From Blasia pusilla (Eukaryota), in assembly GCA_050084515.1 (NCBI GenBank), contig CM114271.1, positions 31,806,001 through 31,870,000 on the forward strand: DNA of 64,000 nt. The letters are read 5' to 3'. Position numbers and translations under genes: made by a program. The notes beneath the pieces are model-generated. The model saw only the letters and a program-made list of their open reading frames with translations, did no database searches and was not told the DNA's origin. Each line of letters starts with the position of its first letter. The first letter of the stretch is position 1. Below are positions 2,997 to 26,118 of the stretch, piece by piece.

Positions 2997-3567
2997 ATTG
3001 GCTGGATGGTGCGCACGCAGAGAGAGAGCCGAGGTTTCTTATGACAGCCAAATTTGTATGTTGTAGTTCACAACTTTGACGGGTGTAGTTCTCTGGAGTG
3101 TTTTCGTGTATGAGAAGGTGATAAAACGTTTTCATCAGAAGAGAGAAATAAGCTTGAATGAGAAAGAACCAGGGCAGATAGCGGCTGCAGGCGATGAGCA
3201 TTCGAGCTGAAAACTCAACTAGAGGATGCCATTGTGAACACCTGGTGGAGCGGAATTTGGGATGGGACCAGAATTGACGATGGCTCCTTTTGATAGGCAT
3301 GCTTCGAGGATTACACTGACATAGTTCGGTGATATAGTCGAGTTAATTTAATCGTTTACAGGGACGGAGCTTTGCCGAAGAGGAAGGGCACGCGCATTGT
3401 CCCGAAGTCGACATCGCAACGTAATAGATAGTGCAGTTTGGATCTCACAACTCTCCGGGGACGGTTTGAGTAGAGCTTTCGGACAGGTGTTTCCGCAGAT
3501 TTGAAGTCTCTGCAATTGGATAGACCAAATTCAGACGATTGATACAATCCTTTGAGACATTTATCCT

Positions 3568-5942
3568 ATGGAACAGGAGTCAGAAGGCCAGGCAAAAATG
3601 AGTCCTCTAGACTTCGAACGGAAGGTGCGTTTGGAGGCACTGTCGGTATGCCAACGCCTGGAGCAGCGAATCCGAGATGCACCAGAAGGATTTCTAGGAA
3701 TTGCTCACGGAGAGGAAACACAAGAGATTCTGAATGCGTTCGCGACCACCGTGGAGACTTTCGGCAAGCTGATCCGTATGCTCTCTGCCTACCCCAACGG
3801 TTCACGCAATGCCGCCTTCCCTATCACAGCCGAGGACACCAAGTCTCAGGAACAAATCGGCAGGGTAGGAGCTATGCCTTTAAATGCTGAGAGTCCGTTG
3901 TTGTCAACTACCAACACCGCCGAAAGTACTCCGCCCCATTCCCCTCGACGCCCCCCTGGTTCTACTTCCAGTCGCTTGATTATGTCCAGCCCGAACATAA
4001 GCCCCTGTCACACTCCACTCAGCGGTAGTGGAATGTCTGATGGCTCTCCTAGACGACAGAATGCAGTCGCCCTGGATTCGGATGGGGAGGTGGCCGATCG
4101 TGTGCGGCGATCGACTAACACTTCAAACAGCGCCGAGATGGAGGCTAATGAGAAGCAGGCTCTGTCTAAGAAAAGGTAGGACCCATCCATTTCAAACCGC
4201 AGAATAAGAGCTCATTCCCAAACCCGGGGACGGGACGATCGTGTCAGCAGAGGACCTGTATTGAGAATCTGCTCTGACTCTATACTCGCAGCGCTGTCAA
4301 TTTCCATCCGCAATTTCAACGATTTGTGATTTTTCTGATATATGTTCGTACTCGTTGTTCGCTGCAGGAAGTACTTGCCCAAGTATTCATGTAAACAACT
4401 TGCCACGGGCTCTGACCCAGGAAACGATGGACCTCCGGATGACGGATACACTTGGCGCAAATATGGACAGAAGGACATCCTGAACTCAAGCTATCCAAGG
4501 TATGTGCAGTTTTCGATTGATCACGAGCCTGTCTTCTCGACCTTACTGGAATGAATTTGCTGTCATCTTCAATACTTTCAATTTGGTGGTCGCACTTAGG
4601 TCACAGGTGAGGAATATTTCCGAATGTATGTTCTCTTGCGATCGATCTCTGTCAAGCCCTGTAGACAATTTATTTCACCCGAATAGTCTGTTCCAGTTTC
4701 AGAATCGTTTTTCTTGAATCGCTCAATTCGACTGCTAAACCTGTTATTGCTTCACTCTTGCCGTCTGATCTCAAGGATGTGCAAAGAACGACGGATACTT
4801 CATCCGGTTCCCGTCTTTTCTAGAGCAAATGAAGTCCCTTATCGATGACCGCGGAGTCTGATTGCGTTATTAATTTGATTCTGTGCAGAAGCTACTACCG
4901 GTGTACGCACAAACATGACTTGGGATGTCCGTCCACGAAGTTGGTTCAACGTTCAGATAAGGATCCTACAATGTTTGATGTTACTTACCGAGGTGATCAC
5001 ATCTGTCCGTCCATGCAACAGCGAACAAACTGGCCTTTTGCTGTGGCACCTAGCCAAATGGCAATCCATGAGCTGCTCAATTCCGATCCAAACATTTCCA
5101 ATGCAATCATGGCAGCTACCATTGGCAACCTCCGTACCAATATACCCAGTCAAAGTCAGGAGAATGTTCTCCTAGGAATATCCCCAGCTGCACAGTCAAC
5201 GGCAGGGTTGGCTGTTCCCCACTCATCCGCTTCAGATATGAAGCAAACGCATCCGACGACCGCTCCGGCTCCGGCTCTCAATCAAACCTTAGCCGGCGGG
5301 TTTTTTTTGGAAGGGCATCCCATGGCTGTTTCCCGAGGCTCGGGCACTCACCGGTGTAGTATTTCGCCAAACTCGGCTTCCGCTAACCAGTCCTCTCAGC
5401 AGTCTTTCCAGGCACGGACAACAGCAACTGATGGCATTTGTCGGGCGGAATCCTTTCTCATGAATCTCGTACTTGGAACAAGTCCACAAACCGTGCAAAG
5501 AACTGATGGTCGTGGGTCCACGGCATTTGACGACTTATCAGATTATGGTCAACTCCATTCGCAAAAGGACACGGAGGCCGAGCGTGAAGATGGGGGTCAG
5601 GCTAGGACTCGGTCAGTGAATAATATCGAGGTGATGAGAAGTTTAGAAAGATGGCCTGATCCTCTAGAGTCGCAATTTTCTGTTTCTTCACACCAGGCCG
5701 TACATGATGAATTAACTGGCGTATACTGTGTATCTCCATCTAATTCTGAAGTGCTCTCGAACCAGCAACAAGAAGTAAGATGTCCATACAATAACTTGCC
5801 TCCGATGGAATCCGATGCTTCGGAGGTGATCTCCGAACAAACACCGTTACCTGGTTCTCCCTACAGTCCCATGGCTGGGTACATGATTGGTAGCCCTGGT
5901 TGCCATCCGCATATGTACGTGGACATTGACCAGCCTTGGTAA
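3568..5942 (+). CDS. WRKY: Group III WRKY transcription factor, ~597 aa; exons 3568-4175, 4368-4499, 4889-5942
   Basis: GT-AG introns join the exons in frame (1794 nt). Contains DDGYTWRKYGQKDIL and the conserved phase-2 intron in the PR codon. The zinc finger CTHKHDLGC-X23-HIC is C-X7-C-X23-H-X-C, diagnostic of group III. Confidence 0.95.
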
Positions 5943-8702: not shown

Positions 8703-11700
8703 TTCATTCCTCAATTCCTAGCCTATGAGACCCAGTTCTATGTCGTGTACTACTATGATGTAAGATCGTGGAGATCCCCGCAAGAAGGTATCCTTGTTCA
8801 CAATATACAAGCATAGGATTAACATGAAGTTGATAGAACTCTATTTTGTGCCCGGGTTGCTCCAAATAATATTGAGAAATTGCTTCTATAGATGCTCGCG
8901 GAGTGCATTCCGTTTCAAGTCCTAATCGCGTTCTACCACATTCCACTTTGAAGACCAAGTCACCACATCCGCAATCCACCCTATGGAACGTGTGGCTTGC
9001 AAAGCTTGATGAGGGAGGCAAGAAACATCGAGAGATCTCACCCTTCGATATAAGTGATGGTCAAGTAGAGAGCTTCAACCTCTAGAGGAAGACAACCTGT
9101 TTTTGCAAGAAAAATAGCATAAGGAGTTTGGTTTCTTATACCCAATTTTTCTTTTAGAAAGATCTTTTGCACCCTCTCCAACTTGTCTTCTTATAACTAG
9201 GGCCCCAAACTTGAGTCCCATATAAGACCACCGACAACACTAAGCTCTTAAATAAGAACTTCCTAAGATCTCAAGACACAAGATGAGCTCTTCTACATCA
9301 ATTTAAAAATGAATATAGAGCTTTGTAACCAGCTTCTATTCTCTTTTACACGCAAAGTGCCCAACTATAGTCATGAGAGAAATCAATGCCTAGATATTTG
9401 AAACACTTCACTTGTTCTAATTATAGACCTTTGTAAGAGAACGAGAATTTAGATCTAGTACCCACTAATGACTTTAAACTTCTCCATATTAACCTCTATC
9501 TGATTCTGGGTACAAAAACATGTCAAAGTGTCGAGGTGTTTTTGTAAACTAATGCCATCACGTAATATGATATCATTTGTATACAATAGAGCTTTGATGA
9601 CAAAGTCTCCAAGCATGACACCTTCACTATCACATTCCTCCAACCACTTTTTGATATAATTTATGAAAACTTCAAATAGAGTAGGGGAGAGAGGGCAACC
9701 TTGAATGACTCCAAAAGTACTTAATATCTCTTGAGTTTGTGAATCTGTGATCTTGGCCCGAACGGAATGGTACAACATGGCCACGGACGGCAACTAGTAG
9801 ATTTGATGGTACTCCAATGGTTGGCAGCCTATCCCATAACAACTTACGAGATACGGTATCAAAAGTTTTCTTGAAATCGATGAAACCACAAAACAAAGCT
9901 TTCCCATTGCCCTTAGATTTCTCCCATAAAATACGTAAGACCAAGATATGGTCAATGGTGTTGTATGTTGGGGCGAAAACCAGCTTGGACCCGTGCTCTC
10001 TTTTGGAAAGACTCTGTCCATGCGCTCAACTTTGACTCCACCAATTTCCCAAACAGCTTGGCAAAAACACTACCGACCATGATAGTGCGATAGTTTGTCA
10101 CCAAATCCTTCCTTCTTGATTTATGAATAGGAACAATCTCCTGTAGTGACCAAGTAGAAGAAAAACCATAGATAACAACATCACTCAATACTTTGGTAAG
10201 GATCGGTCCGATAGAATCTCCTCCCCACTTGAGAAGTTCAATAGAAAGACCATCCAAATCCTCATATTTGCCATTTGCTAATATTCTAAGTTGAGTCATC
10301 ATCTTTGCTTCAGAGAATAAGCCTAGTATTCCTCCACAACGCGACATAGATATAGCATGGGGAAAGAAGTAGAGCTTTTCAGCAAAAGATATCAAAGACT
10401 GGAAAGCAAGAGTAGGTTTTGAATACCATACTACTAATTGTCTTCAGAATGATTTGGGATCGTCATGGAGTTCCTTTGTTAAGGACTCTTGCTTCCGCTG
10501 CAAGAAAACTCATTTCTTGGATTTCACCAAGTATTTATAAAGGCGCGTCATGATAAGCCAACTTTGGATATCCAAAGATTTGTCCACTGACCTTAACCTT
10601 GCTTGCTTGCATTCAAAGTCAAACCAGCCATTACAAGGCAACCTCCTAGCACTTCTATTTCTGTGTCGGGAAAAGAACTTGGATGCAGTGTTTTTGAGCA
10701 ATTCGGTTAATTGCAAGCTTTCTGTCTCTGGATCAGAACTCCATATAATGTGAGTCAAGAGTTCTTGTAAATCTAGCCTATAAAGATTTTTTTTACCAAG
10801 ACCTAAGCGAAACTTCAGAGAAGCTAAAACATATTGACATGTAGAGAGAGGAATTGCCTTTGACATTGAAAGAGTAAGCAAAAAAGGGGCATGATCTGAT
10901 TCAGGATGAGGGTCTAAAATGTCAAATGTAGAGATATGAGAGCTATAAGTGGACGAGGAGAGAAGATAGCCAATGGTGCTCGCATCGGTAGAGGTGAAAC
11001 ATATATTGGAGTGAGAGTTTGGAAAATGAGAGGTTCCATTAAGAACTTTCAAATTACAAGTGGCTCCGAAAGTTAAAAAATGCTCTATCACAGGATTTGT
11101 AGAAAGATCTAAAGAGATTCAAGACCACAAACCATCCTCTGGTTTTTCTAGAAGAGGAGCAGTAAAAGAATCACTAAATTGGGTAAATTGAGCAATACGT
11201 GTACGAGCATTGAAATCCCCAACTAGAAAGACTTCACCTTTGCTTTGATATTTGAGAACATCCCCAATAAGTCGGTGGAACGGTTGACTTTGATTGTAAG
11301 TGCGTGTTGAGTAGATAGGCATGGACAGTGGTGCAAAATAACGAACTACCAAATAACAATAAGATCCCCCAACCAAACCAAGACGTAGCCAATGATATTG
11401 GCCCCCGATATCTTGATCTTCTAGTGCAAATTGGTTTTCCTTTTCTATCTCTTGCTCTTGATAGAAAGAGATATGAGCAACCTTTGTAGCTTCAGTATAA
11501 GATTTCATTTTCACTTCCAAAGTTTCAACAACCTCATGCAATTCTGAACTATTGGGAGTAGTCTCTAATGATGATGCTTTCTCTTGAACATCCACAACAG
11601 ATTTGGAAAGATCCACCATCACACTAGAGCTATCTTTCAACTCCTTTTTCAAAACCTCTAGCGTTCCTTTCAACTCTCGAATTTGAATATGTGCAAGGTT

Positions 11701-12542
11701 CAATTGAGAAGTTTGTACCTTGAATTTTTGCCGAAGCTTTTTCAATTCATGCAAGACCACTTGCATGAGATTCAAGATTTTGTCTTAAGTAGTCATCATG
11801 CAGTGGACTTCAGTACATCCCAGATATTACACGACCTCCAATCAAGTAGAGCATAAACTTCAACACCACACAACTTTTGCTCTAGGATTTTGTTGTGCTT
11901 ATAATTTCTATAGCTTGGACGTCTCCTTACATTTCACGTTTCCTCAAAATCTCAGCTTCACCTAACACTTCATGTGAAAGATATGGCCTTTGGAAGATTT
12001 AGATCTGAAATCCTCAAATGTGGAAGAGCAGAAACTCAAATCCCCCATAAATTCGTCTTTGTGACTTGGTTGGCCTTAAAATTTTCAACGCTAGGGCACC
12101 TTTTGACATTGCACGTGTCTTAAAAATATTCATTTTATGTAACACTCCACCTAAAAGATATGGCCTCCGCAAGATTCAGATGTGAAATCTTCAAATGTGG
12201 AAGAGCAAAAACTTAAATCTCTCATAACTTCATCATTGTAGCTTTTCTGGCCTTGAAATATTTAGGAATAAGGAGTATCTTTTTATTACACGTTTTCTTA
12301 AAATCTCAACTTCATGTGACACTACACTTGAAAGATATGGCCTCTGCAAGATTCAGATCTGAAATCTTCAAATGTGGAAGAGCATAAACTTAAATATCTT
12401 ATAACTCCATCTTTGTAGCTTGGTTGGCCTTGAAATTTGTAAGGATAAAGCATTTCCTCCCATTTCACGTCTCCTCAAAATCTCAGCTTCATGTGACACT
12501 TTTTCTGAAAGATATGGCCTTTGCAAGATTTAGATCTGAAAA
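8703..12542 (-). mobile_element. Degenerate LINE (CR1/RTEX-like), copy 1; 3'-truncated and internally deleted
   Basis: Contains ORF1 coiled-coil fragment, APE motifs (VGDFNART, SDHAP), RT fragments (FIDFKKTFD, QGCPLSPTLF, YTND) and RHRTGSHRLGIEE. Colinear with the copy at 27451-32323. A deletion near 11430 fuses ORF1 to APE. Confidence 0.9.
11860..12542 (-). repeat. 177-bp tandem monomers at the LINE 5' end (copy 1)
   Basis: Anchor GATATGGCCT at 11980, 12157, 12334 and 12511, an exact 177-bp period. Confidence 0.9.
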
Positions 12543-13462
12543 ATCTCCAAGGTGACCTCTTTGCAAGGCATACTTACGTAAACCTCTCTTCATCGTCTGC
12601 ACAACCCTCTCTACTAGTCCATTTGCCTCAATATGATCTTGCGGAGTGGTGCACTGGTCAATCAGTGCCATATCACAAAAGGTCTAAAACTCCCCATGAA
12701 ACTCCGTAGCCTGGTTTGTCAACACCTCAACGTGTGCGCCATGATGACTCAACACTCAATCTAGGAAGTCATACACTACTCCCTCACTTGCTTTGTTAGG
12801 AAATGCAACCAACTCTATCCACTTCGAGAAATGCTTGACCGTCACCAACACATAATGACTATGGCGCACCGTCAAAGGTAAAGGCCTTGCAAAATCCAAA
12901 CTTCATCGATAATCTAAACCCATGATCGAAAGTGGATGCAATTGTGGATTCAGAGCATTGAACGATGCCCAGACTCGATCACACACCATACATCTACCAA
13001 CAAACTATTTATTGCCAATCTTCATGCCTCGCCATCAATAGTGTATCTTGAGTCCGCTATATATCCGCTTCACTCCAAAATGACCCAACTCCTCGAAGGC
13101 ATGCTGCACCAAACGTGCTCTCTATGAAGGATGAGGAACTACACATACTCTAGCATCCTCCCAAACTCACAACACGTGTGTCTCTTCCCACCAAAATTGT
13201 CTAGCTCACTATAGGATCCGATCCCGCTCTCTAGCACCCACTATGCTCGCGACGCTGCTGGTATACAAGTACTCCAAGATTACTCCATCCTCATGAATAT
13301 CTCGGCCACTTGTTGCTTCTTCAATGACCTCTGGATCTAAGGACTCTCCATTAGAACTCGCCATCCAAGTGTTAACAATGTGGCTTTCCATAGCCAATAA
13401 GCCCAAATAGGCTCACGCATGCCATCCCGACACCATCTCTTCATTATGCTAGCGAGCTCCAA
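12543..13462 (-). mobile_element. Older Ty3/gypsy host element, integrase part (downstream of the nested insertion)
   Basis: EANGLVERVVQTMKRGLRKY, the DFARPLPLT region and RDIHED...RERDRIL are homologous to the inner element's integrase. Many stops. Cut by the LINE at about 12543. Confidence 0.85.
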
Positions 13463-13566
13463 TGTCGTGCGAATCCACATTGTCATACAACATACATCGT
13501 TGACATACCATACTCACATACATACATAACATAGACGAGAGCATACACAAACACAAGTGTACCACA
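13463..13566 (-). repeat. Repeat A, terminal copy (104-bp U3-start segment displaced to the element's 3' end)
   Basis: Near-identical to 13937-14040 and the same length. Confidence 0.9.
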
Positions 13567-13575
13567 ATTGAAATA

Positions 13576-14040
13576 TGTGAAAGACCTACTGTCATAAAAC
13601 ACGTATAGAATCACATACAATCGAGCCAAACCCACTCCACGATGGGAGAATCCATGTCAAAGCTTGCAGGAACCACCTTAGCCAAGAGCTCTACTCACTA
13701 CCAAGGCTAACTCCCAACGCAAGATGCTCAACTCAAAAAACTAACTGTTCTTTGAGTGCACTCCATACTATATCCTCCAACCTAAGAGCGGGCCCTACTG
13801 GAAAAGTCACCCTCAACTGAGTAACCCCCAACCCTATGTATGAAACCGCATCTCTACTTAGACACTACCGTCCTACATAAGGTATGGCCTCTACTAGCAC
13901 ACTATACTCTACGACATAATCCGTATGGTCATGATTTGCCGTATGAATCCACATCGTCATACAACATACATCGCTGACATACCATACTCACATACATACG
14001 TAACATAGACGAGAGCATACACAAACACAAGTGTACCACA
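13576..14040 (-). repeat. Complete 3' LTR (A 14040-13937 + B 13936-13576), sense TGTGG...TCACA
   Basis: Preceded on the sense strand by the purine tract AGGGGGGCGA (14052-14043). B matches 20763-21112 and A matches 13463-13566. Confidence 0.85.
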
Positions 14041-14207
14041 AATCGCCCCCCTAACTAGCGGTTAGGTCCGTCTAACTCCCAAGTAGCCCTACTACATGCT
14101 AAACACCTTCTTGGATGCACGAATCAGAAGGCCGGGTGCTAGGTTGCCCCATCGTTAGTCGCCTATCTGTAATCCATATCACGCAAAGATCAAGTCATCT
14201 ACCTCTC

Positions 14208-14352
14208 CTAAGTACATCGAGGACAAACCCACCTTCCAGTAGGAACAACATCCATACATGGAATTAAACACATCATGTGCCAACCCCTAGAACACCGATC
14301 ACACACCAACATACGGGCTGCATTACCAACAAACCCACATAACATACACCTC
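14208..14352 (-). pseudogene. PHD finger at the integrase C-terminus
   Basis: CMLC...MLVCDRCSRGWHMMCL...VPTGRWVCPRC fits C4HC3, with the conserved Trp before the last Cys pair. Confidence 0.9.
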
Positions 14353-14631
14353 AAGCTAGCACGTATCATCGCTAAGCTTGGGTCAACAGTACCATCCACA
14401 TTTGGAAGATGACATGGCGCACAATTACGCACATGGTCCTTCCAAACAACTCCATCACGACCCCCGAAAAAATCCGAGCTGGGGACCGGTTTAGCATGTC
14501 TGTGGAAAAGTCCAACAAACATTTTAAAAATATGCAAAACTCTTCCTTACTGAAAAAATCAACCCTTTCTCTCTTGCCATTCCCTTTTGAAAATTATTCC
14601 TTATTTCTCCTCCCCTATTTAAAATTAAACA

Positions 14632-16084
14632 TCCAACATGAGAACTCCAGAAGCTAACACCTCGCGCACTCGTAAAATAGTGCGGCCTGCCGTCATATCC
14701 AACGTTGTCGGTGCAATCTGCTGCAAATAGACATAGTCCCCCACATGGAACCTACGAATCGATGGTCGATAACCTCCACCCCGAATGGTTGCATACCGCA
14801 ACGTATCCCTATGTTGAGCAATGGCAAGATTCTCAAAGGCTGTTGGCATAACTCTCCGAAAGAGCTCCGCCCGCTAAGAACACACCCTCATCCAGATCTC
14901 TGGGTCATCAAGGTTCACCACCTCACTAGACTCCCGACAATTGTTGGCAAAAGTCGGATCTCGGCCGTATAATGTAAAAATAAGGTGAGAAGGAATCCAA
15001 GGATGCTTGGCAACTAAACCTATACCCCATGGCTAACCATGGCAGCTGAATATCCCAGTCTCCAAGATGCCCCTTATGTAGGCCATACTTGCGCAATGCC
15101 CTCTTCACCGTCTGAACCACACGCTCAGCCAAACCATCCGCCTCTGGATGATCTCAAGACGTGGTCCGATGATCAATCAACGCCTTGTCACACAAGACCA
15201 AGCTCACCCAAACTCAGACTGGTCGGTCAACACTTTAGCTGGTGCACCAAAATGACTAAGCACTCTATCAAGAAACGCATACGCCGTTCTCTCACTTGCC
15301 TTGTCCGGTAATGTCACCAATTCAATCCACTTGGAGAAGTGCTCCACCATCACCAACACATATCGATGATGTCGTACAGTCAACGGTAACGGTCCCGCAA
15401 AGTCCACACTCCAACGGTAACCCAACCCCATAATAGGCAAGGGGTGTAATTGTGGTGTAGGAGCATTGAATGATGCCCTCACCCGGTCACAAACCATACA
15501 ACGTGACACCAATCGCTGCACTGAGTATGCATGCCACGCCACCAATATCGCCAAGGAGTAAGCTATACGTACGCTTTACCCCAAAATGTCCCAACTCCTC
15601 ATGGGCATGTCGCACAATGCGCTCTCTCTGAGCCAGATGTGGCACTACTCGTACTCTACCATCCTCCCACACATGGAGAATATGTGTTCCCTCCAATCGA
15701 TACCTCTTAGCACGTTGAAGAACACGGTCTCGCTCCTTGGCACTCACTATGCCTGGCACCCTACTGGTCCGTAGGAACTCCAACACCAACGCATCATCAT
15801 GAATATCACGTTGATCCGTACCACCATCTCCAACCTTAGGATCTGAAGGTTGGCCATCTACCCTCTGACTAGAGTAAGATATCATGTGGTTCTCCATACT
15901 AGAGTCCACCCCTAACCAACATAAAAAGGCGGATGCATGCCAACCTGGCACCATCTCCTCATCAACCTCGCCATGCCATCTAGCCCCAGTTGTATCCTCT
16001 TGGCTAGTACATGGGTTCCTACTCAACCCATCAGCATCAAGGTTGGCAACTCCAGGTCTATGTACCACCTGGATGTCATACTCT
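14632..16084 (-). pseudogene. RNase H C-terminal end and DDE integrase of the inner element (frameshifted)
   Basis: EYDIQVVHRPGVANLDADGLSR; HEELGHFG...CMVCDR zinc-binding region; WSVDFAGP, LTDQ..EF, ERVVQTVKRAL; FHVGDYVYL. Confidence 0.9.
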
Positions 16085-16545
16085 CCATCATTTGGGTCCG
16101 AGTGTCACCCAACAATGGAACATTCTCCAGAATGTAAGCTAGAGCACGTGCCTGATGAACCTGGAGATGTCGTAACACCCATAACATCTCCCAAAACAAT
16201 CGAGACCTAGGGTCGTGTAATCCCTCACCACGACCAGCACGTGTATGACCCTGACATGGCCATCCAACAATCACCAAATCCATAGGACCAACCCTCTCAA
16301 GGTCCTGCGCCCCCAACAATGCAATGTGTGACGGCAAAGCACGCTGGTACCCACGAATAGCTGATGGCGGCAACAACTCAGGATATCTCCGCATCAATTG
16401 ACCAATATGTCGGGATGAGACTCTCTAGGCTGTCTCATCTTGCTCCACATACACGTATCTCCGCACAGGAATACCGGCCTGCAACACTGCAGCCAAACCA
16501 GTGCTAATCCCACCAAAGATCTAGAGATCTAACACACAAATGCCC
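16085..16545 (-). pseudogene. C5 cytosine DNA methyltransferase domain (motifs I-VI), C-terminally deleted
   Basis: In frame with the protease-region ORF. Motif I: ICVLDL[*I]FGGISTG, where a 6-bp TAGATC duplication creates the stop. Motif II: YVYVEQD. Motif IV: DLVIVGWPCQG, with the catalytic PC. Motif V: LHDPRSRLFWE. Motif VI: YILENV. Confidence 0.88.
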
Positions 16546-16899
16546 TCCGGCAGATACTTCCATAAAATGGGTGTAATATCCAAAGGGGATAACCCAACTG
16601 GACCAGAAGTAGGAGTCCGCCGTGGGGCCTCCTCTTCATCGTGAGGTATAACAGCCTCACACCAAGCCTCCTGCACTAGGCAATGAGCCTCTTGCCGTAG
16701 TGCACCGCCTGAACTCCAAAGTGGCACATCCAACGATGAGGATGCCATTGCTGCAAAAATAAGGACCTCTTCTACCTCTTCATGGGCAGGAGAATCCATA
16801 GCAGAAACATTACCCTCCAAAAAGTCTCCTCGCCAAGTGACTACTCCACTAAAACCAGCCACAGATGCTAACACTGTTGGGGAAGACCCTCCTGGTCGA

Positions 16900-19250
16900 G
16901 CCCCATAAATAAATCTCACAAGAACTTGGCTCATACGTCCATCCCCGGATTGCCAACCAGGTCTATAAGACGTTGTCTCAGTCCAGTAATCCATCTGAAA
17001 ACCCATCGGGTACAATACTGCTCCTCCAACTAGTACATCATACAACTCGGCTGATGTGACTACCGCAGGTCCTCCCTACCGGGAGCTATCAGTCGCATAA
17101 TCTGGTCTCAACTGTACGGAAAGCTTCTCCCGTGTCATGAATTGAGACCTATCATTGGCTCCTCCAAGTGATGTTTGAATCTGGAATGGGCAAGGCTCAA
17201 GCTCTGACCTCCGAATACCCAAACCAACATCTTATATCCCAACATCCCTCTTCGCTGCTGCTGCCTGCCAAGTAGCACTGGTACTCAATGCTATCCCTGA
17301 CATAGAGGGTCGCTCCACCGCAACACCCTCATTCACCTCAGCACGTGTAGCAGTAACATCCCCACGTTCACACATCGTGGCTGCTAGTTGAAATACAGGA
17401 GCTAAGTCAACTCCTAAAGCCATCAGCTCCGTGGCCGAAAACAATGGGGATCCCAACACTGAAGTTGCCATCTGCAATATTGCACTGGATGGTGCATCCG
17501 TGTCTACTACACGCGATGTAGATGCCTCAGTCCCCATTGTCGGCTCAATAGGTTGCGTAGGAACCATGGATGAATTCCTAAGCACCTCAGACAACAAGAA
17601 TGACTAGGGAAGCCTAGCCTACCTCCCAGCCTCACCCTCTATGGGTCCAACTCCACAGTACCACCACGTGGCTCTGACGCTCGAGTGGCTCCTCTCGTAA
17701 CTACAGCTGATGCCTCAACCTGTACTGCACTCGCCATATAAGAGAGATCATCCCCTCCATTAGAGATGGAAGCCCCTACTCCCAAACCTGATCTATGCTG
17801 GATACAAACCATAGTAGCCAACTTTTGCTCCAACTGCTCAATCCTGGTAGCCATAGCTGACTCTGTCGTAGTGGTAGGGGTAGCCACCGTAGGCTCTCCA
17901 ACCTCTAGAGGTAGAGGTCCACCTCTACCACACCTACCACCTCTACCACCTCGGCCTCTTGGAGCTACTCCATCACGGCCGCGGCCTGATCTCAACTCTG
18001 GATGAAGATCAAAGCAACGCCCTAGAGGATGACCTGGTCTCCCGCAATGATCACACTGAGTTGGGGCCGACTGAGGCCCATCCTCCAAAGTCCGTCTCCC
18101 ATCCTCTTGGGGACAAAACTTCCTAACATGATCACCTCCACATGTCCAACATGACTGTCCTTGCTGCGGGGCAGCAAATGAAGGCAATGGTCTCTGCGCA
18201 GGTTTCCCTCTAGGACCTGACTAAGGTCGTGTGTATCCCCCACAACTCCCACTACTACTACCACCACCACTACTACGAGACTGTGAGGTGGGTTGCTGAA
18301 TACGAGAAGTAGTAGTTGTATCCCTACTGAATGCGGATGTCACCACTCTCTCCTTCACCATGTTAAGCTCAATCTTCTCAGATAGAGCAAACACATGGGT
18401 CAATGTGGGTGAATCATCACTCATAAGAGTACCATTACGTACCCTACGACGCAACTCTCTGTCCAAGATCCCATACCAAAACTGGACTGCCTGAGCCTCA
18501 GTCACACCCTGGGTAACTGAAATCAAGCGTCACATACGAGTGTATGCCTCACGAAGACTCTCACTAGTCTTTCGCTCAAATTCCTGAAGACTCCTCAACT
18601 TCTCTGTCTTCACTCCTTGATAGTTCTTCTTCAACCTCTTGAAGAACTCTGCAACCGGGTTGAATGATGGTGGGGCACTAGTACCTCCACTAGTACCTCC
18701 ATGGGTACCTCCACTAGTACCCCCACTCCAGCTTGTACTCGTACCACTCAACGTCAGACTGACTGGCATAGTAGGAGCACTACTACCAATACCACCATGG
18801 GTGATAGACATATAGCCTGGAGACCAATATTGTCTCCACGCCTCAATCTCAGCAACATGGTCCTTCCTAAACTCATGGTAATCATCCATGGGTGGTCCCT
18901 CCAAGTGCTGAAACAACCCCTTCCAAGCCAAGAAGGGTGTAAACAACGTGGCGTTCCGCAACATCTGCATATCAAACCACGTATCAAAGTCCTAAATGAA
19001 GTCCTCCAACTCAATGATGCTCACTGCACCCGAGTATCGTCATGGGCCCTTCATGGCCCCATATATCCCATCCATGTCCCAAATCAATGGAGCTGCAACA
19101 CTCGATAACAACGTAGAAGACTCGGTGTCTGGAACACCCTCGTCCTCCTCTTCATCAACCGTCGGAAGTGGAAAAGGTAACCGATACCTCAATCCACTCC
19201 GTGTGAAACCACTATTGTCTGCACCACGGTCCCCAACAAGACAGCTCCGT
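16900..19250 (-). pseudogene. gag and aspartic-protease remnant of the inner element
   Basis: Capsid-like region (QHLEGPPMDDYHEF, ESLREAYTRM), knuckles CWTCGGDHVRKFC and CDHCGRPGHPLGRC, RGG-rich tract, and protease C-terminal YDVLVG. No catalytic DSG/DTG is visible. Confidence 0.8.
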
Positions 19251-20743
19251 CATGACCAACGCCGATGCCGAACCACCACTAAATTACCACCACTAAGTAA
19301 CCAAGTGACGTCGATGTCGCTGTACTATTCTAGCTCTACTAGCTATGGGTGTAGGCAACCTAACCTATCAGCACCACAAGAAGCCTCCCAAGGTTTACTC
19401 GTCATCACTCTAGCCTCACTACCGATAGTACACAAGAGTAACACTACTCTGGAAATCAACGTCAACCCTAACAATGGGCGCACAAGCAAGAAGCAACGAC
19501 AGAGGGGATCCAAACACATGAAGTCCAACGACAATCCTCCAATCGCAAATGGAAATCAAGGTAATACAATCCACCAAACGTGGCGCCCCCTGAATCCAAA
19601 GAACCCATCACACAATTCTAACGCAATAGCTACTCCATAGCGGGTCGATGATGTGCTAGTCGGACTCGCAGCATCTGAAAATATCATCTGCATGGAGAGG
19701 CTACACCATACTATGTGCTAGAGGTCCATCAACCAAAAAACTTGAGATGCATAAAGCGCCTAAAACATCTCCGAACAACACCAAATGAGATACACCAGTG
19801 TGTACACTCGCATAGTTAAGAACTCAGCAGTTAAGCGTCTTCCAGGTAGAATAGCCCAAAGATGGATGACCAGTTATGCAACACTCAAATCACAAATCTT
19901 GCAAAAACTGCCTCACGCCCAAGCTAGGAAGCTTGCTTGCTTGCTCCTTGCTCCTTGCTCCTTACTCCGCCTCTCATGCCCACTCGCCCCGAGCTACCAC
20001 GAGTTGCCTCAAAGCCTCGCTATGGAGAGAGGCCCAACCAAGGTGCCCCAAACGGAATAGGCGTCTCCAACAACGAACGAGTCACCAACCAACCAGCCCC
20101 TCCGATTCGCTGTCCACCATAGCTATTCTGCTAGTTCTATTCATAGACCTTGAGCTAGTCCGCAAAATTTTGATCAGTTATTACTCCACAAATCCTCAAC
20201 CAAAATTGAATCTGTTTCAACCAGAATTCAATTGACCACCATAGCTATCTCTCCACAAAAAATCAACTACAACCAAGCTCTGTACTCTGAGCTAAAAATC
20301 AGACAAACTTGTTGTCCATACACCTCTAGAATCGCAAATCCGACAGCGCTTCGGCCCAAATTCATGCACGTAGAAATCCGCAACACTCTCCACACTCAAG
20401 CAGATAGCTTCACATGAGATCACAATACAAGTAGCAACAGGAACCTCTCACCCGATCTAGATGAACTTCAACACAGCTTCCGCACTCCAAGCTCTCCACA
20501 TCGGAAAACCGTCGAACACGAACCAGCATCTTCAATCCTTGATAACTTCCAACTCCCTTGACGAAATCCGGCGATCTAAAGCGCATTGGAAAGCTCTCAG
20601 CAAGGCGCTTCTTTCCCAATCAACCACGTACCAGATTCCCACCTCCAACATAGGCCACAAGCCATGAACATCCACGGCTGAGTACACAATCAGCCATAAC
20701 CAGATCCTACTGATCCACAATCGAAGCTACCGTCCATCTACTC

Positions 20744-20754
20744 TAGTTCTTTGA
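20744..20754 (-). promoter_or_regulatory. Putative self-priming PBS
   Basis: Sense TCAAAGAACTA lies 8 nt after the 5' repeat and is perfectly complementary to TAGTTCTTTGA (20930-20920) inside that repeat. No TGG tRNA-type PBS is present. Confidence 0.6.
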
Positions 20755-20762
20755 CTAAAATC

Positions 20763-21112
20763 CGTGAAAGACCTACTATCATAAAACACGTATAGAATCA
20801 CATACAATCGAGCCAAACCCACTCCACGATGGGAGAATCCAGGCCGAAGCTTGCGGGAACTACCTTAGCCAAGAGCTCTACTCACTACCAAGGCTAACTC
20901 CCAACGCAAGAGGCTCAACTCAAAGAACTAACTTTTCTTTGAGTGCACTCCATACTATATCCTCCAACCTAAGAGGGGGCCCTACTGGAAAAGTCACCCT
21001 CAACTGAGTAACCCCCAACCCTATGTATGAAACCGCATCTCTACCTAGACGCATAAGGTATGGACTCTACTAGCACACTATATTCTACAACATAATCCGT
21101 ATGGTCATGACA
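20763..21112 (-). repeat. 5' repeat B (LTR lacking its first 104 bp)
   Basis: 350 bp; aligns to 13576-13936 with one 11-bp indel and scattered substitutions. Confidence 0.9.
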
Positions 21113-21840
21113 CCAATCACATCTCGATGACTCGGGCATGGGTTATGGTTCAAACCATTTGCATCTTGGTGGAGCGTCATAGGTCTATGGACCACCTAGA
21201 AATCATACTCTTGCAGTAATAGAGCCCGCCTCACAAGCTTCCCTATAAGCTTGTCAGACTCCATTAACCACTTAAGTGGTTGATGATCAATGATGATGGT
21301 TAAGGGATTGCTGAATAAATAACACCTAAAATGTGCAACAACCCACACTGCAGCCTAGCACTCTCCCTCATACAAGCTATACTTTATCTCCGTAGCGTTG
21401 TTTGAGCGATTAGCGTAAGCCACCATAAACTCTCTATCCTCATCGTCATGCTGGGTGAGCACCGCTCCAAGCCCCAACATGCTCCAATCAGTATACAACT
21501 GGAAAGGACGCCCCCTGATCGGTCTCCTTACTATAAGCACAAATCTCAATTTTTCCTTGAGCAGCTCGAACATGCTCTCTTGCTCATCCTCCCAGTGCCA
21601 CTCATGATCAACCTTGGTAAGCAAGGTTAGTAACTTTGCAATCAAAATGAAATCCTTGACGTACTGTCAATACAAGTTTTCCAATCCCATAAATGCAAAA
21701 ACTCGACTCATATCTAAAAGGTGTGGAATGAGTGGGATAGCCTCTATCTTTGTGTGCTGAACACCAAGGCCACCTGGGTATATTGTATGACCCAAGTACT
21801 CAATCTGGTCGTAGAAGAATTTGCACTTGCCAAGATGGTA
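21113..21840 (-). mobile_element. Older Ty3/gypsy host element, RT thumb and RNase H part
   Basis: KCKFFYDQIEYLGH, FQLYTDWSMLGLGAVLTQ, VAYANRS, YEGEC, DHQPLKWL, LQEYDF. Continuous with 12543-13462 across the TSD. Confidence 0.88.
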
Positions 21841-24800
21841 TACAGGGGGAAGAGGGTAGCTCTTCCTAGAATTTCCGAGCAAAGTTGGCCTGCTGCACAT
21901 TGCGCTGATTGGATTAGGCATGTTGGTTGCCATCTTTCCCTCTCAAGACTTGGCCTACGTTGAGGACCCCTTTTTCGTCTTTGTCAACGACTATCCTTAC
22001 CGCTGTTCTTGTTGTTCGCTTGATTTCCGCGAAGCCGTCGTCCTGTTTCATCCGTTGTATTTCCACAGATCCCTCGTGCTGCCGCCGACGTAGTCCCTAT
22101 CGTAGCTTTCCAGAATCCTCGGCGCTTGACTTGCTGCCGACACTCTTTTCTCGTCGTTACGGGCCGTTGTTCCGCAGATCTTTGCCTTTGGCCCTAGGAA
22201 CCGTTAGTTTCCATCCTCTATCGTCTGATCTCGTTGCTAAGGTGACGGTTATGATTAACGGTTGCCTACTGGAGAATTTATAGCTTTGCCACGCATTCGG
22301 GCAACGATGGTAGATGACATGTTGATTGATGGTGTCAGAGTGTTTGTCCCGCTTTGCTATGTTTTGTGAGTGGTAGCCGCTCAATGATCAAGTACTGTGC
22401 CGTGACGCCTGTAGCCGTAATGTGCCACTAGGGGAGTATATATGACTTGCTGATTGTAGGAGTTTTGTCTTCGCGACCAAGTTGGGGTTGAGGTTTGCAG
22501 TTGTTAAGATATGACATTGAAATTTTTTCATGTTATCCATTTCGGGCTTTTACCCTACTCGTGTGGGAGAATTTTCGAGTATTTGGCAGTTATTTGGGGA
22601 TATTGGGTTTCGTGCAGATGTTGAGAGCATTATTGATGTATGGGGTTAGGGAACATAGACATGTGTGGGATGTCTAGAGTTGTGGGTATGTCCTATTGAT
22701 GAGACGATAGGAGAGGAGGCTATTTGCAGCACCACGTCGCTAATTGTTGCATAATACATGTTTCAATGAGAGGGAGTGTAGATTGAGTATCATCATATGT
22801 TTGAGTTGAGTGATTGAGAGATTACTCATGAGATTGAGAGTGGTCATGCAAGAGGAACACGAGGGGCATCATGGCATCCTTTCGGGACTTTGAGAGGCAG
22901 GGTGGTGGACCTAAGAGTAGCTCTAGAGGTTTTACGGGGAGTGGCACGAGGTTTTGAGGGTCTCCACGTGAGGGACCGCCTTGATCACCTTATATGTTGT
23001 CCTCAGACAAGGCGGAGGGCGTAGAGGACTTTTTTAGTGATTCACCACACCCGTTGAGTGGCCCTATTTCTTGGGCGTATGAGATGGACCACCGGGATAG
23101 AGGACCGCCTAGGTTTCCGGGAGTGGTAGGCACGATAGGGTTGCATGACTTCATTGGGGAGTTAAGGAGTTGGTGTGATTCACAACCGGCTAGGATTTCT
23201 AGAGAATCCAACCCATTCACAATATGGAACGGCATTCTCCAACATTCTAAGGGAGCATCCATGGACAATTACCATGAGTTTTCCTGGAAGTATACGCATG
23301 AGATTAAGGCTTGGAGACTCTACTATGACCCACATTATGTGTCATGGACTGAGCTATTTCCAAATGAGGAGGAGGAGCTAGAAGAGGCTACTTCCTCTGC
23401 CACTAGTGATGTGCTAGGAGAGGTGACTCGGACTAGAGCACTTGCATCGTCTAGTCGGGTTTATCTTAGGTTCAACCCCGTGGTTGAGTTCTTTGCGGAG
23501 TTACAAAGGAACTACAAGGGGTACAAACTGAGAAGTTGCGGAGCACCCACGACTTCCATAGGCGCACGAATGAGAGTTTGCGTGAGGCATTCACTTGCTT
23601 GCATTGATTGATTAGCGTCACTTTGGGAGGCGATAGAGGCCTAGGCTATCAAGGCATGGTACGCAATGCTGGAACGAGACGTGTGGAAATAAGTGAGGGA
23701 TGCGGTACTTCTTATGCGCACCTCACCTACATTGAGAGATGTTTTTGAGATGGAAGAGTGTATTGAGCGCAATATGGCTGAGGAGAGCGTAGCAGCCATG
23801 GGATCACGTGTGAGAGCCTAATTTCCTACACTATCAGATTTTGGGAGAGGACTTTGGCGCCACGAGCTCAAGGAGGATATCCAGAGTTTGTGCTAGAGAG
23901 ACCTACGCCATCATATGCGTCACAATAGCAACACCCACGGATTATTTGTTGGGCATATGGTGGAGCCCATCACGAGCGGGATCATCACGATAGTGGACGC
24001 GTGCCTCAACCTGGAGGAGGAGATGGGTTCGCACCAAAAGTTTACTTGTGTGACCATTGTCGGAGGTATGATCATACACGCGCTAGGTGTTTTATATTGA
24101 AGATTGAGTTATAGTCAATCTCATGAGATACCTCAACTGCTATATTTGGTACTCACACGAAGTAGGGAAGCTTAATCTTGGTTAGTCAGTTAAGCGCGAT
24201 TATCTTAACTAGGGTTAATTAAACACAATTAGTATAACTCGAGACTATGGTTAAGATTAGGGTTAGGGTTGCTTGTACATACCTTATATAATTGAGAAGG
24301 GGACTAGCCTCCACTCATTCTCTCATTGCAAATTTTGTTCTCCATGGTGGTGTGTGTGTGTGAGAGTTGTTTCCAACCATTTATGCTTCTTTAGCAGTTT
24401 TCCACATGGTATCAGAGCAATAGAAGAATATCACTTGAAATTCCTGGTGTTTGAGGAGAGAAGAGAGGCAAGAGAAGGCACAACTTCAATTTGGGAGAAG
24501 GAAATTTTGTTCAAAGTTCAGTGGATGCAAATTTCAGATGGAGCTTTGACCGTGATAAAACTTTGGAGACGTTTTTTAGGGCTTTCCCGGTCGATTTAGC
24601 CATCTAGGTCTGCAGTGGCTAAAACCATTCCAAAGGCTAGTTCTATATGTCTTGTAGAGCTTTTTGAGAGCTTTCCAATGCATCCAAAATCGCTCGATTT
24701 TGACATTATGAGCTCCTGCACTAGCAATTTCAGTGTAGGAAAGTGCAATTAGTGAAGAAAAGTTTTGCAATTTACTCTCTACAGGCCAATTACGACTAGT

Positions 24801-25863
24801 TCTTTCATACATTTGATCAATTTTGGAAAATTTTAGGTTGATTTCTCTGTTGGAATGATCTATGCTCAATTAGAGTAGTAGAGAGCATGAAATTACGTCT
24901 TTGTGAGTGAAATCGTATGTCATGGAGTATTCCTTAACAACATTCATAAGCGAGAAGCTAGATAAGCAGAATTATAATGTCTGGAAGTTTCGCATGAAAC
25001 AATTTTTCATAGGTCAAGAATTATGGGAGCTTGTTATAATTGATGAGGCCAAGCCAAAAGGTGACTCAACAGACTTGAATGTTCGCACGTGGAACAAACG
25101 CACAAGGCAAGTAATCCACTACATTTCAATAACGATCAGTTCGCCAATGATAGGTCACATTCAAGATGTTAATACTCCGAAGAAGGCCTGGGATGCATTG
25201 GAAAATTTGTTCTTGACATCAACAAAGGCCAAAAAGCTTCAATTGAAACAACAATTGAACGAAGTGAAGAAAAGATCGCAGAGCATCAATGATTATATTT
25301 TGAGTATCAGACATATTGTTGATCAGTTTAATAGCATTGGAGTGACAGTAGAAGATGATGATCTCATTTTGTTCACTCTTCAAGGCCTTCCAAAGGATTA
25401 CAAGTCCTTTGAGACCTCTATCTCTGTGAGAGAGAAGTATCCAACCTTTCAAGAGTTAGTCCCACTGTTAATAAGTGAAGAGATGCGCCTAGTAGGCAAC
25501 GGTAGCTCGTCTAGTCTCCAAGAGAGTGCGCTATTTGCAGGTTATGGATCAAACAAAGGCAGAGGTCGTGGCAAGAGGTTCTACGGTCGTGGTGGATATC
25601 AAGCATATGGAGAAGAGGCACTCAATATAGCGTCACTCAATCAACAACGAACCAATACCATACAGAATCACAAGGTGGTGATGGTGGAAATCGTTGGGGT
25701 CGAGGTCAACAGCAAAGGATCTCTGGATCTTGCAATTACTGTGGGATAAAGGGTCACTATGCAAAGTTTTTCTTCAAGAAGAAGGCAGATATGAGAACAA
25801 GAGCCTTACAGAAAAAAACTATGTGGAGCAACAACACCATATCACGCATATCGAAAAAAATAA

Positions 25864-26118
25864 CCCTGTTCTACTATCTTTCCTACAGAGATCAGGTTTC
25901 TTGCAATGGTAGGAACATAGAGAATATTTCCAACAGCAAAAAGACCATCCGATGCTATTGGAACTTTACCGGTATGCGTGATATGACACTCAACATCATA
26001 TCACGCATACCGGTAAAGTTTAAATAGCATCGGATGGTCTTTATGCTGTTGGAAATGTTCTCTATGTTCCTACCATTCCAAGAAACCTGATCTCTGTAGG
26101 ACACATAGTAGAACAAGG
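25864..26118. repeat. Long inverted repeat: arms 25864-25986 and 25996-26118, 9-nt loop
   Basis: The left arm is the reverse complement of the right arm with few mismatches. Absent from copia copy 2. Confidence 0.92.

Follow-up and report, generated by a model that had tools for sequence, protein, structure and literature searches.

A decayed gypsy-like retrotransposon with a predicted DNMT3-type cytosine methyltransferase and its multi-copy family in bryophytes

The window analyzed here is a 64-kb stretch of DNA (contig CM114271.1 of Blasia pusilla, positions 31,806,001 to 31,870,000 of the forward strand). It holds, on the minus strand between positions 13463 and 21112, a Ty3/gypsy-like element of 7,650 bp that is nested in a fragment of another gypsy element. 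Read from 21112, the element consists of a terminal repeat (A1, 349 nt), a leader of about 1.5 kb, gag, protease (PR), half of a DNA methyltransferase (DNMT), the tail of RNase H, integrase (IN), and an open reading frame (ORF) with a PHD finger; coordinates are collected in Table 1. Judging from profile scores, motif order and alignment with relatives, the methyltransferase segment is almost certainly the N-terminal half of a DNMT3-type C5 cytosine methyltransferase within the Pol polyprotein of this retrotransposon.

An earlier sequence-only reading of the stretch had noticed motifs I, II, IV, V and VI of a C5 methyltransferase in canonical order, and the minus-strand translation bears this out. 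Positions 16023-16550 read ...GICVLDL*IFGGISTGLAAVLQAGIPVRRYVYVEQDETA*RVSS...LVIVGWPCQGHTRAGRGEGLHDPRSRLFWEML...YILENVPLLGD..., with GWPCQGHTRAGRGEGLHDPRSRLFWEML as the middle stretch between RVSS and YILENVPLLGD. The placement in frame downstream of the protease was likewise recovered, as the same frame extends up into the C-terminal end of the protease (YDVLVGGAVLYPMG). Two in-frame TAG stops interrupt the segment, at 16521-16523 and 16425-16427. In the alignment, close relatives (e.g. P0003) read VLDLFGGISTG without the two extra codons of the window; the six additional bases (TAG-ATC, 16518-16523) are therefore an insertion in the window copy. This agrees with the extra 6 bp proposed for motif I, which had been read as a duplication, but a clean tandem duplication could not be demonstrated. 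The proposed check against the Pfam profile PF00145 (curated cut-off of 22 bits) placed the read-through at 30.5 bits (E 3.3e-7) and an uninterrupted 133-aa ORF at 33.2 bits (E 5e-8), with relatives scoring 29-49 bits. A phmmer search with the segment against 1.84 billion representatives returned 1463 matches at E<=1e-3, 406 at E<=1e-10 and 25 at E<=1e-30, and by these scores the match lies far beyond chance. In a protein atlas, the 133-aa ORF met only generic PF00145 clusters of bacteria and phages (0.92), which adds nothing beyond the family name.

The window copy keeps motifs I-VI only, of which motif I is broken by the stop-bearing 6-nt insertion. The set of all ten motifs, including the catalytic PC (IV), ENV (VI), and VIII-X, was found in the intact relatives L013, P0162, P0169 and P0006, in which motif VIII reads GSRAHRxRLWWTN, motif IX ERERAMGF and motif X GQAMD. 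The order in relatives (I, II, IV, V, VI, VIII, IX, X) is not circularly permuted, unlike that of plant DRM. When the family profile was compared with PDB sequences, the best matches were DNMT3A (71 bits), DNMT3C (64 bits) and DNMT3B (62 bits), followed at lower scores by M.HhaI (42 bits), tobacco DRM (35 bits), Arabidopsis DRM2 (29 bits) and DNMT2 (24 bits). A single-sequence search with the full-length relative P0006 gave 29 PDB matches at E<=0.01, all of them DNMT3A, DNMT3B or DNMT3C. Neither a PWWP nor an ADD domain was detected by Pfam N-terminal of the catalytic domain in the window read-through (P0002) or in relatives. In more distant clades (P0154, P0159, P0100, P0129), motif IV reads WECQ instead of WPCQ, so that the proline of the catalytic PC is replaced and the cysteine kept.

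We searched for long proteins with P0002 as the query and obtained 27 matches, comprising 16 from Marchantia polymorpha, one each from Calypogeia fissa and Sphagnum fallax, and nine unnamed ones. The named matches share 35-71% identity with the query; the best Marchantia match, Mp_4g09160, reaches 70% over 94% of the query, Calypogeia fissa 63%, and Sphagnum fallax 49%. Marchantia P0162 spans the element from the start of gag through PR into DNMT (19075-16077, about 60% identity), Marchantia P0167 and P0180 have the order DNMT, RVT_1, RNaseH, and P0188 is a single ORF of 2358 aa with PR at residues 663-711, DNMT at 953-1137, reverse transcriptase (RT) at 1443-1596, RNase H (RH) at 1660-1789, IN at 1925-2090 and PHD at 2300-2344. 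Additionally, metagenome contigs were scanned with the peptide patterns WPCQ and FWEM, taken from an alignment of four rows; 298 matches yielded 102 confirmed relatives, of which 80 loci were kept. PR lies just upstream of DNMT in 52 of the 55 loci with enough upstream sequence, RT follows within 1.5 kb downstream in 41 of 47, and a PHD finger is found downstream in 18 of 20. The full order gag-PR-DNMT-RT-RH-IN-PHD was seen in 11 loci, and one locus (L013) reads zinc knuckle-PR-DNMT-RT-RH-IN in one frame with only two stops. As read from these copies, the intact family is gag(CCHC)-PR-DNMT-RT-RNaseH-IN-PHD in one frame, with the PHD finger behind IN and about 1,100 residues from the catalytic domain of the methyltransferase. 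The gypsy order of gag(CCHC), PR, RT, RNase H and IN thus holds at the level of the family; the window copy is without RT and most of RNase H. The claim that the methyltransferase is carried by the retrotransposon, between PR and RT, was confirmed in this way from both metagenome loci and Marchantia proteins.

The window copy itself is dead, as had been concluded from the two stops and the missing motifs VII-X in the DNMT segment. We counted at least nine in-frame stops within homologous stretches (four in gag, three in PR and the linker, two in DNMT), at least three shifts of frame (from gag to PR, where DNMT meets RNase H, and within IN), and an internal deletion of about 2.15 kb. Motifs VII-X were correctly described as deleted, but the loss is larger and takes RT and most of RNase H as well. 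Homology to DNMT ends at 16080 and homology to the RNase H tail begins at 16083. In Marchantia P0167, residues 1-534 align to 17567-16077 and residues 1097-1189 to 16083-15676, leaving about 560 residues missing in between, which are the C-terminal half of DNMT, RT and RNase H. In the undeleted loci L003, L005, L044 and L075, the two breakpoint positions lie 2148-2154 nt apart. Independent derivatives without RT were also found, one passing from DNMT straight to PHD (L017) and two from DNMT to the tail of IN (L077, L079). The window copy can make no methyltransferase and no RT and is an inert fossil; it inserted into another gypsy element and decayed afterwards.

Two other accounts of the locus were weighed at this point. 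The sequence-only reading had itself set against its proposal the case of a host fragment captured by one copy, that is, a piece of a host gene or mRNA picked up through template switching or nested rearrangement. The copy is indeed heavily rearranged, DNMT stops abruptly at the junction, and no second DNMT-like stretch was found within the 64-kb window. However, the junction is a simple deletion relative to undeleted copies, and the order PR-DNMT-RT recurs in independent loci with the frequencies given above, in Marchantia proteins and in single long ORFs, so that a one-copy capture has next to no probability left. The junction might also be an assembly chimera, with an undeleted element at the real locus. 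The family is highly repeated, reads from other copies show loose ends at the junction, and no listed contig piece was seen to bridge it. Nevertheless, we consider a chimera very improbable: deletion derivatives without RT arose independently in three other loci, a single insertion of 7.65 kb is in keeping with the flanks, with the target duplication and with the two halves of the surrounding gypsy element (host element B), and the bins on either side have depth at >=99% likeness in the best DNA contig set.

The remaining parts of the element were identified by comparison with relatives. By tblastn, the gag piece of L013 aligned to 19219-17693, and residues 1-469 of P0162 to 19075-17618 with 62% identity. 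A CX2CX4HX4C knuckle can be read in the window translation, and L013 has a zf-CCHC Pfam match; the window gag gave a weak Retrotrans_gag match only and no zf-CCHC match in Pfam. Relatives P0154, P0188 and P0059 have Pfam Asp_protease_2 at the position homologous to the window protease, and residues 462-1033 of P0162 run from protease into DNMT (17645-16077). In the integrase, rve scored 40.9 bits (cut-off 32.6), while Integrase_H2C2, at 23.9 bits, stayed below its cut-off of 25.5. The stretch 14632-16083 shares 82-84% nucleotide identity with 20+ metagenome loci. Between integrase and PHD finger lies a copy-variable stretch; the joint 14463-14632 that skips it occurs in 94 and 106 RNA reads and also in DNA contigs of X1, and loci align on either side of the stretch but not across it. 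The PHD finger (PF00628) scored 34.2 bits (cut-off 24) and matched 80 PDB PHD sequences at E<=0.01, the best being those of MLL3/KMT2D, CHD4, ATXR5, DPF2/3 and KDM5. Several of these PHD fingers read unmodified H3K4. The C4HC3 pattern, which always closes the ORF, is unbroken in the window copy as well as in 12 of the 19 loci.

Table 1 Features of the DNMT-bearing element and of the gypsy fragment around it, in window coordinates.
Feature	Position	Strand	Basis or remark
Host element B, upstream half: RT C-terminus and RNase H of a related gypsy element	21117-21942	-	60-65% identity to Marchantia P0167, P0180; RT_RNaseH_2 61 bits
Target-site duplication TTGG, upstream side	21113-21116		adjoins the element's first bases TG (21112-21111)
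Repeat A1, 5' terminal	20764-21112	-	match to A2
Gag with zinc-knuckle region, 4 in-frame stops	17639-19219	-	tblastn
Protease and linker, 3 in-frame stops, one frameshift from gag	16590-17651	-	alignment segments 17651-17250 and 17225-16644, frame -3
DNMT3-like C5 cytosine methyltransferase (predicted), N-terminal half (motifs I-VI)	16081-16589	-	PF00145 match, alignment, tblastn
Junction of the ~2.15-kb internal deletion (DNMT motifs VII-X, RT, most of RNase H)	16080-16083	-	protein alignment, locus spacing, read ends
RNase H, last ~30 residues (..EYDIQVVHRPGVANLDADGLSRNP)	15994-16083	-	73% identity to L013 RH residues 140-169
Integrase, several frameshifts	14632-15993	-	H2C2 part ~15556-15633; rve core 15204-15575
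Copy-variable stretch of 168 nt (indel between copies)	14464-14631	-	absent from most related RNA reads and from some of the DNA contigs
C-terminal ORF ending in PHD finger, then stop codon	14208-14546	-	PHD C4HC3 ~14214-14348
Polypurine-tract-like TTAGGGGGGCGA	14043-14054	-	just upstream of B1; kept in L037 and L053
Repeat B1, internal	13945-14041	-	97 nt shared with 13471-13567 at 96.9% identity
Repeat A2, internal copy of A1	13577-13934	-	match to A1
Repeat B2, 3' terminal, ending ...CGACA	13463-13567	-	match to B1
Target-site duplication TTGG, downstream side	13459-13462		adjoins the element's last bases CA
Host element B, downstream half: RNase H/IN linker and integrase	12489-13458	-	12544-13163 vs 15059-15669, 71% nucleotide identity

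The reading frame of host element B is interrupted at 21117 and picks up again at about 13458, on the other side of the insertion. Tandem repeats with a unit of 177 nt, 73-80% alike, occur at 11921-12541 and, 20 kb away, at about 31627-32320; host element B has its integrase cut short by the first of these arrays.

The element had been called an LTR retrotransposon. It has gypsy-type domains, TG...CA ends and the 4-bp duplication TTGG on both flanks, but its repeats are split direct repeats rather than plain LTRs. A1 and A2 are identical in 333 of 358 aligned columns, differing by 14 mismatches and one 11-nt gap, and the 97-nt unit B stands directly upstream (B1) and directly downstream (B2) of A2, giving the layout A1, polypurine-tract-like run, B1, A2, B2. 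The same layout was found in L037 and L053, the latter flanked by a 4-bp duplication AATC. Over the B1-A2-B2 block, the mean column identity between the window and these two loci is 84%, and the polypurine-tract-like run before B1 includes AGGGGGG, conserved in both. Ordinary LTRs with a stray duplication of 97 bp were considered and rejected once this layout had been seen here and in L037 and L053. The TG...CA ends and the 4-bp target duplication indicate that the element was inserted by a DDE integrase; no match to a tyrosine recombinase was obtained, and rve and Integrase_H2C2 are present instead. Neither ARAGORN nor Rfam reported anything in the window, including tRNA genes in the case of ARAGORN. 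The combination of gypsy domains with DIRS-like split repeats is odd, and it is common to the window element and to the published description of KnitGypsy-Dnmt3 from Klebsormidium nitens, which has DIRS-like repeats with gypsy domains according to the legend of Fig. 4c in de Mendoza et al. 2018 (PMC5890265).

In order to obtain information on transcription, two DNA contig sets and two RNA raw-read runs (X22, X23) with the same species label were mapped. Parts of the element were present in 20 of the 24 listed runs, most of which share one coded species label, with some air metagenomes among them; no RNA run was listed among those with parts of the element, and the RNA evidence comes from the two raw-read runs. 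The reads of X22 and X23 covered 30 of 30 bins, and the first mate fell almost always on the plus strand (e.g. 138.8 vs 3.47 in bin 14236-14490). Given the usual stranded library, the RNA is therefore sense to the element; the strandedness of these libraries is an assumption and not a recorded property. Only 73 of 2857 and 50 of 2713 reads were >=99% alike to the window, so most of the RNA stems from other copies. Loose read ends were found exactly at 16080 (39 reads) and at 16083 (78 and 60 reads), and DNA sequences break off at the same two positions. In their hand-translated consensus, DNMT goes on with ..VHEVRSWIGP, and RNase H reads KLARWALILQ followed by EYDIQ; at the same places, undeleted loci have VHQIRSWIGP and KLARWALILQ. 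This agreement indicates that undeleted family members are transcribed. Further lesions specific to this copy appeared as loose ends at 17227 (many reads), 15199 and 14089. A joint between 14848 and 15846, with nine other letters between, skips 997 nt of integrase and was seen in RNA only (16 and 29 reads), none being listed in DNA contigs; it stems either from transcription of a deletion derivative or from RNA processing.

The sense strand of the element is G- and T-rich and C-poor, with a GC skew of +0.17 to +0.26 and an AT skew of about -0.1. This was observed for the minus-strand elements in 12001-22000 and the plus-strand gag in 22001-24000 of the window, and for L013, L037, L044 and L053. 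As the window and the metagenome copies are alike in this respect, the skew is a family trait and not a product of local decay; it might reflect loss of C to U/T on the sense strand. The observed/expected ratio of CpG is 0.62 in the element and 0.41-0.86 elsewhere in the window and does not discriminate.

A quick maximum-likelihood tree of 47 DNMT domains, built from transposon-borne relatives only and without host DNMT3, DRM or Klebsormidium sequences, placed the window in a group of 16 rows (SH-aLRT 97), together with Calypogeia, six Marchantia rows, and a subgroup of Sphagnum and seven metagenome loci. Farther out, a Closterium protein and unnamed long ORFs have the same PR-DNMT order, and a second large group, including Monoraphidium and Cymbomonas proteins, has the order RT-RH-DNMT-IN-PHD. 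Among 30 representatives that were looked up, we found the streptophyte algae Mesostigma viride and several Closterium strains. No Klebsormidium protein was among the 60 matches named or listed or among these 30 representatives, and the element is set beside the Klebsormidium copies by their published description; shared descent with KnitGypsy-Dnmt3 is likely. By sequence comparison, the nearest relatives are thus in bryophytes (Marchantia, Calypogeia, Sphagnum) and more distant ones in charophyte and chlorophyte algae. The genome had been taken for one of land-plant type; these relatives, liverworts and a moss, together with a WRKY exon and with copia and LINE elements in the window, point to a land plant of the bryophyte kind. 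In a Closterium species, the polyprotein P0097 is of copia type, with rve followed by RVT_2, and has a C-terminal C5-methyltransferase stretch. PF00145 gives this stretch 21.4 bits, slightly below the threshold, and phmmer matches it to the window DNMT at E 4.7e-21, which suggests a related DNMT in another superfamily of retrotransposons, the second one, in a charophyte. P0200 from Monoraphidium neglectum shows a Tudor-like PTM_DIR17_Tudor match behind its PHD finger (23.8 bits, below the cut-off), which would give this polyprotein one more module for reading chromatin.

The WRKY exon lies at 4833-5942 on the plus strand and encodes the C-terminal part of a WRKY DNA-binding domain (PF03106, 51 bits) with a long low-complexity tail; the ORF at 3556-4179 upstream of it may belong to the same gene. 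Two LINE-like copies on the minus strand (8704-11784 and 27528-30628), with an endonuclease/exonuclease/phosphatase fold and RT motifs, are 88-92% identical over about 1.7 kb and lie about 19.1 kb apart; the second has an open stretch of 499 aa. Three Ty1/copia elements or fragments were identified at 24907-26027 (+), 32048-33984 (+) and 58785-62585 (-), with Retrotran_gag_2 at 99 bits and RT/RNase H-like ORFs, and the last of them contains long open stretches. A third gypsy-type gag in the opposite orientation (22985-24111, plus strand) shares 32-37% identity with the gag of Marchantia P0162, and no DNMT-like stretch follows it before the copia gag starts at 24907. Finally, open stretches of 1708 aa (45253-50379, minus strand) and, upstream of it, 311 aa (50512-51447, minus strand) have no Pfam family. 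Within the longer one, about 60 residues are duplicated (GIDDSQPTKSDTTRVTNKLPYDVPSHLVQ...), and a search with its residues 900-1700 found no homologue; it resembles a very large exon from a host gene that is an orphan or evolves fast.

We further analyzed constraint across copies, a comparison already proposed by the sequence-only reading. The median pairwise dN/dS among metagenome loci was 0.52 for DNMT (29 copies, 277 pairs), a value that mixes selection in active lineages with neutral decay and comes from pairs that are not independent. It falls within the span of the element's own indispensable domains (0.30-0.65), with RNase H at 0.30, RT at 0.37, IN at 0.47, gag at 0.51 and PR at 0.65; the value for PHD, 0.82 from 12 pairs only, is uninformative. 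Motif I is kept in 70 of 73 loci, motif IV in 67 of 78 (a count biased upward because WPCQ served as a search pattern), motif VI in 57 of 70 and motif X in 39 of 49.

Taken as a whole, the explanation that we favor, covering the identity of the segment, the state of the copy, the make-up of the family and its likely working, is highly probable. A specific scheme in which the element methylates its own cDNA or insertion and integrates under guidance of its PHD finger is considerably more tentative and, on balance, somewhat doubtful. According to this scheme, DNMT would be made within Gag-Pol, released by PR and travel together with RT and IN. De novo methylation of newly synthesized cDNA, or of an insertion just made, would follow. 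Much as the chromodomain does in chromoviruses, the PHD finger that terminates IN would tether the integration complex to a particular state of histone H3. New copies would thereby land in silent chromatin, soon resemble it, and do less harm to the host. The self-methylation part is the same speculation as that in the Discussion of de Mendoza et al. 2018 (PMC5890265). On a wider scale, and with still more doubt, there may be one gypsy-like lineage, spread over green algae and land plants (Mesostigma, Closterium and bryophytes, plus chlorophytes with the second domain order), that combines a DNMT3-type writer and a PHD reader with DIRS-like split repeats and a DDE integrase. This lineage would still be active in land plants and would place 5-methylcytosine de novo on insertions as they arise, and perhaps on DNA of the host, without recourse to RNA-directed DNA methylation. 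If so, part of what is listed as 'DNMT3' in bryophyte gene sets would be transposon-borne.

Several points weigh against this explanation, in addition to the assumed strandedness and the composition of the quick tree. The enzymatic activity of family members is a prediction from sequence, and the constraint on DNMT appears only moderate. Just 2 of the 29 DNMT stretches are stop-free, and nearly all readable copies are decayed. The RNA reads are transcripts of undeleted copies and no proof of an intact ORF or protein. Furthermore, no tRNA-type primer-binding site (TGG) was recognized after A1, either in the window element or in the loci inspected. Two other ways of working have to be considered here. 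The domain may have been kept without being a DNA methylator, acting on an RNA target or serving as a non-catalytic binding or regulatory module like DNMT3L. The moderate constraint and the WECQ motif in one clade of relatives point in this direction, but the bryophyte clade keeps all catalytic motifs (FGG, PCQ, ENV, RxR, ERERAMGF, GQAMD), whereas DNMT3L-type proteins have lost theirs. An experimental result bears on both this possibility and the self-methylation scheme: the Klebsormidium enzyme, KnitGypsy-Dnmt3, gave no detectable de novo methylation in yeast, which its authors call inconclusive because human DNMT3B failed as well (PMC5890265). We regard a non-catalytic or RNA-directed role as unlikely. 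To about the same degree improbable is that the methyltransferase would act on host DNA near or away from the element, creating a silent landing zone or perturbing silencing, and not on its own cDNA. A PHD finger on IN implies contact with chromatin, and effects at the insertion site are raised in the same Discussion (PMC5890265); however, nothing in the present data separates such an action from methylation of cDNA.

The benefit that a retrotransposon could draw from carrying the enzyme by which it is usually silenced has been an open question since 2018. The earlier sole streptophyte example came from an alga, with an inconclusive enzyme assay, and the window extends the family to land plants. 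Copies in the transformable Marchantia polymorpha, together with transcribed undeleted copies, make activity, histone binding by the PHD finger and methylation of new insertions testable in a tractable plant. Novelty had been overstated, as Gypsy-Dnmt3 of a streptophyte alga is in print and relatives are contained in the public protein sets of Marchantia, Calypogeia and Sphagnum; still, no paper describing these relatives was found. The 2018 element was cited again in 2025 and in 2026 (10.64898/2026.05.21.726589), and a 2025 MBE paper says only 'as previously reported in streptophytes'. Our literature searches turned up no account of gypsy elements with a DNMT from Marchantia, from other bryophytes or from land plants at large, although supplements may list land-plant cases. 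New with respect to this literature are the multi-copy family in land plants (liverworts and a moss, including a genetic model), the PHD finger that ends the polyprotein, and the integrase-made target duplication flanking split direct repeats. There is also a caution for annotation: one Marchantia model whose UniRef name begins 'DNA (cytosine-5' aligns from gag through PR into DNMT of the window element.

Among known systems, animal DNMT3A/3B/3C resemble the family in being the best PDB matches to its catalytic domain, with the same order of motifs. Animal DNMT3 pairs this catalytic domain with a PHD-like (ADD) reader. In the window family no PWWP or ADD stands beside the catalytic domain, and the PHD finger, being behind IN, would sit on a different cleavage product. 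The closest counterpart is KnitGypsy-Dnmt3, which shares a non-rearranged Dnmt3-type domain in a gypsy-type Pol ORF, repeats described as 'the same as that of a DIRS retrotransposon', and a streptophyte host (PMC5890265). It differs in that the window family resides in a land-plant-type genome with its nearest relatives in liverworts and a moss, in that its polyprotein ends in a PHD finger, which the passages on the Klebsormidium element do not mention, and in that its DNMT constraint looks weaker (dN/dS 0.52 vs <0.2) (PMC5890265). SymbioDIRS-Dnmt3 and SymbioLINE-Dnmt of Symbiodinium are likewise retrotransposon-borne C5 methyltransferases, and those on DIRS elements are DNMT3-like, with de novo CG methylation in yeast; they stand on a tyrosine-recombinase DIRS or a LINE backbone, in another host kingdom, and are independent acquisitions according to the authors (PMC5890265). 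The split direct repeats A1-B1-A2-B2 are shared with PAT-like and Ngaro elements, which use a tyrosine recombinase (PMC4157794), whereas the DDE integrase of the window family is of rve type and its copies show TG..CA ends with a target duplication of 4 bp. Chromoviruses also carry a histone reader fused to the C-terminus of IN, which presumably targets integration (10.64898/2026.05.21.726589); the window family has a PHD finger in place of the chromodomain, plus a predicted writer of DNA methylation. Finally, the EpiLTRs of Cymbomonas and Euglena are LTR elements that stack a DNMT and a chromatin reader, but their DNMT groups with DNMT4 and lies at the 3' end of pol, with an adenine methyltransferase and a chromodomain (10.64898/2026.05.21.726589), whereas the family described here has a DNMT3-like domain between PR and RT, together with a PHD finger.

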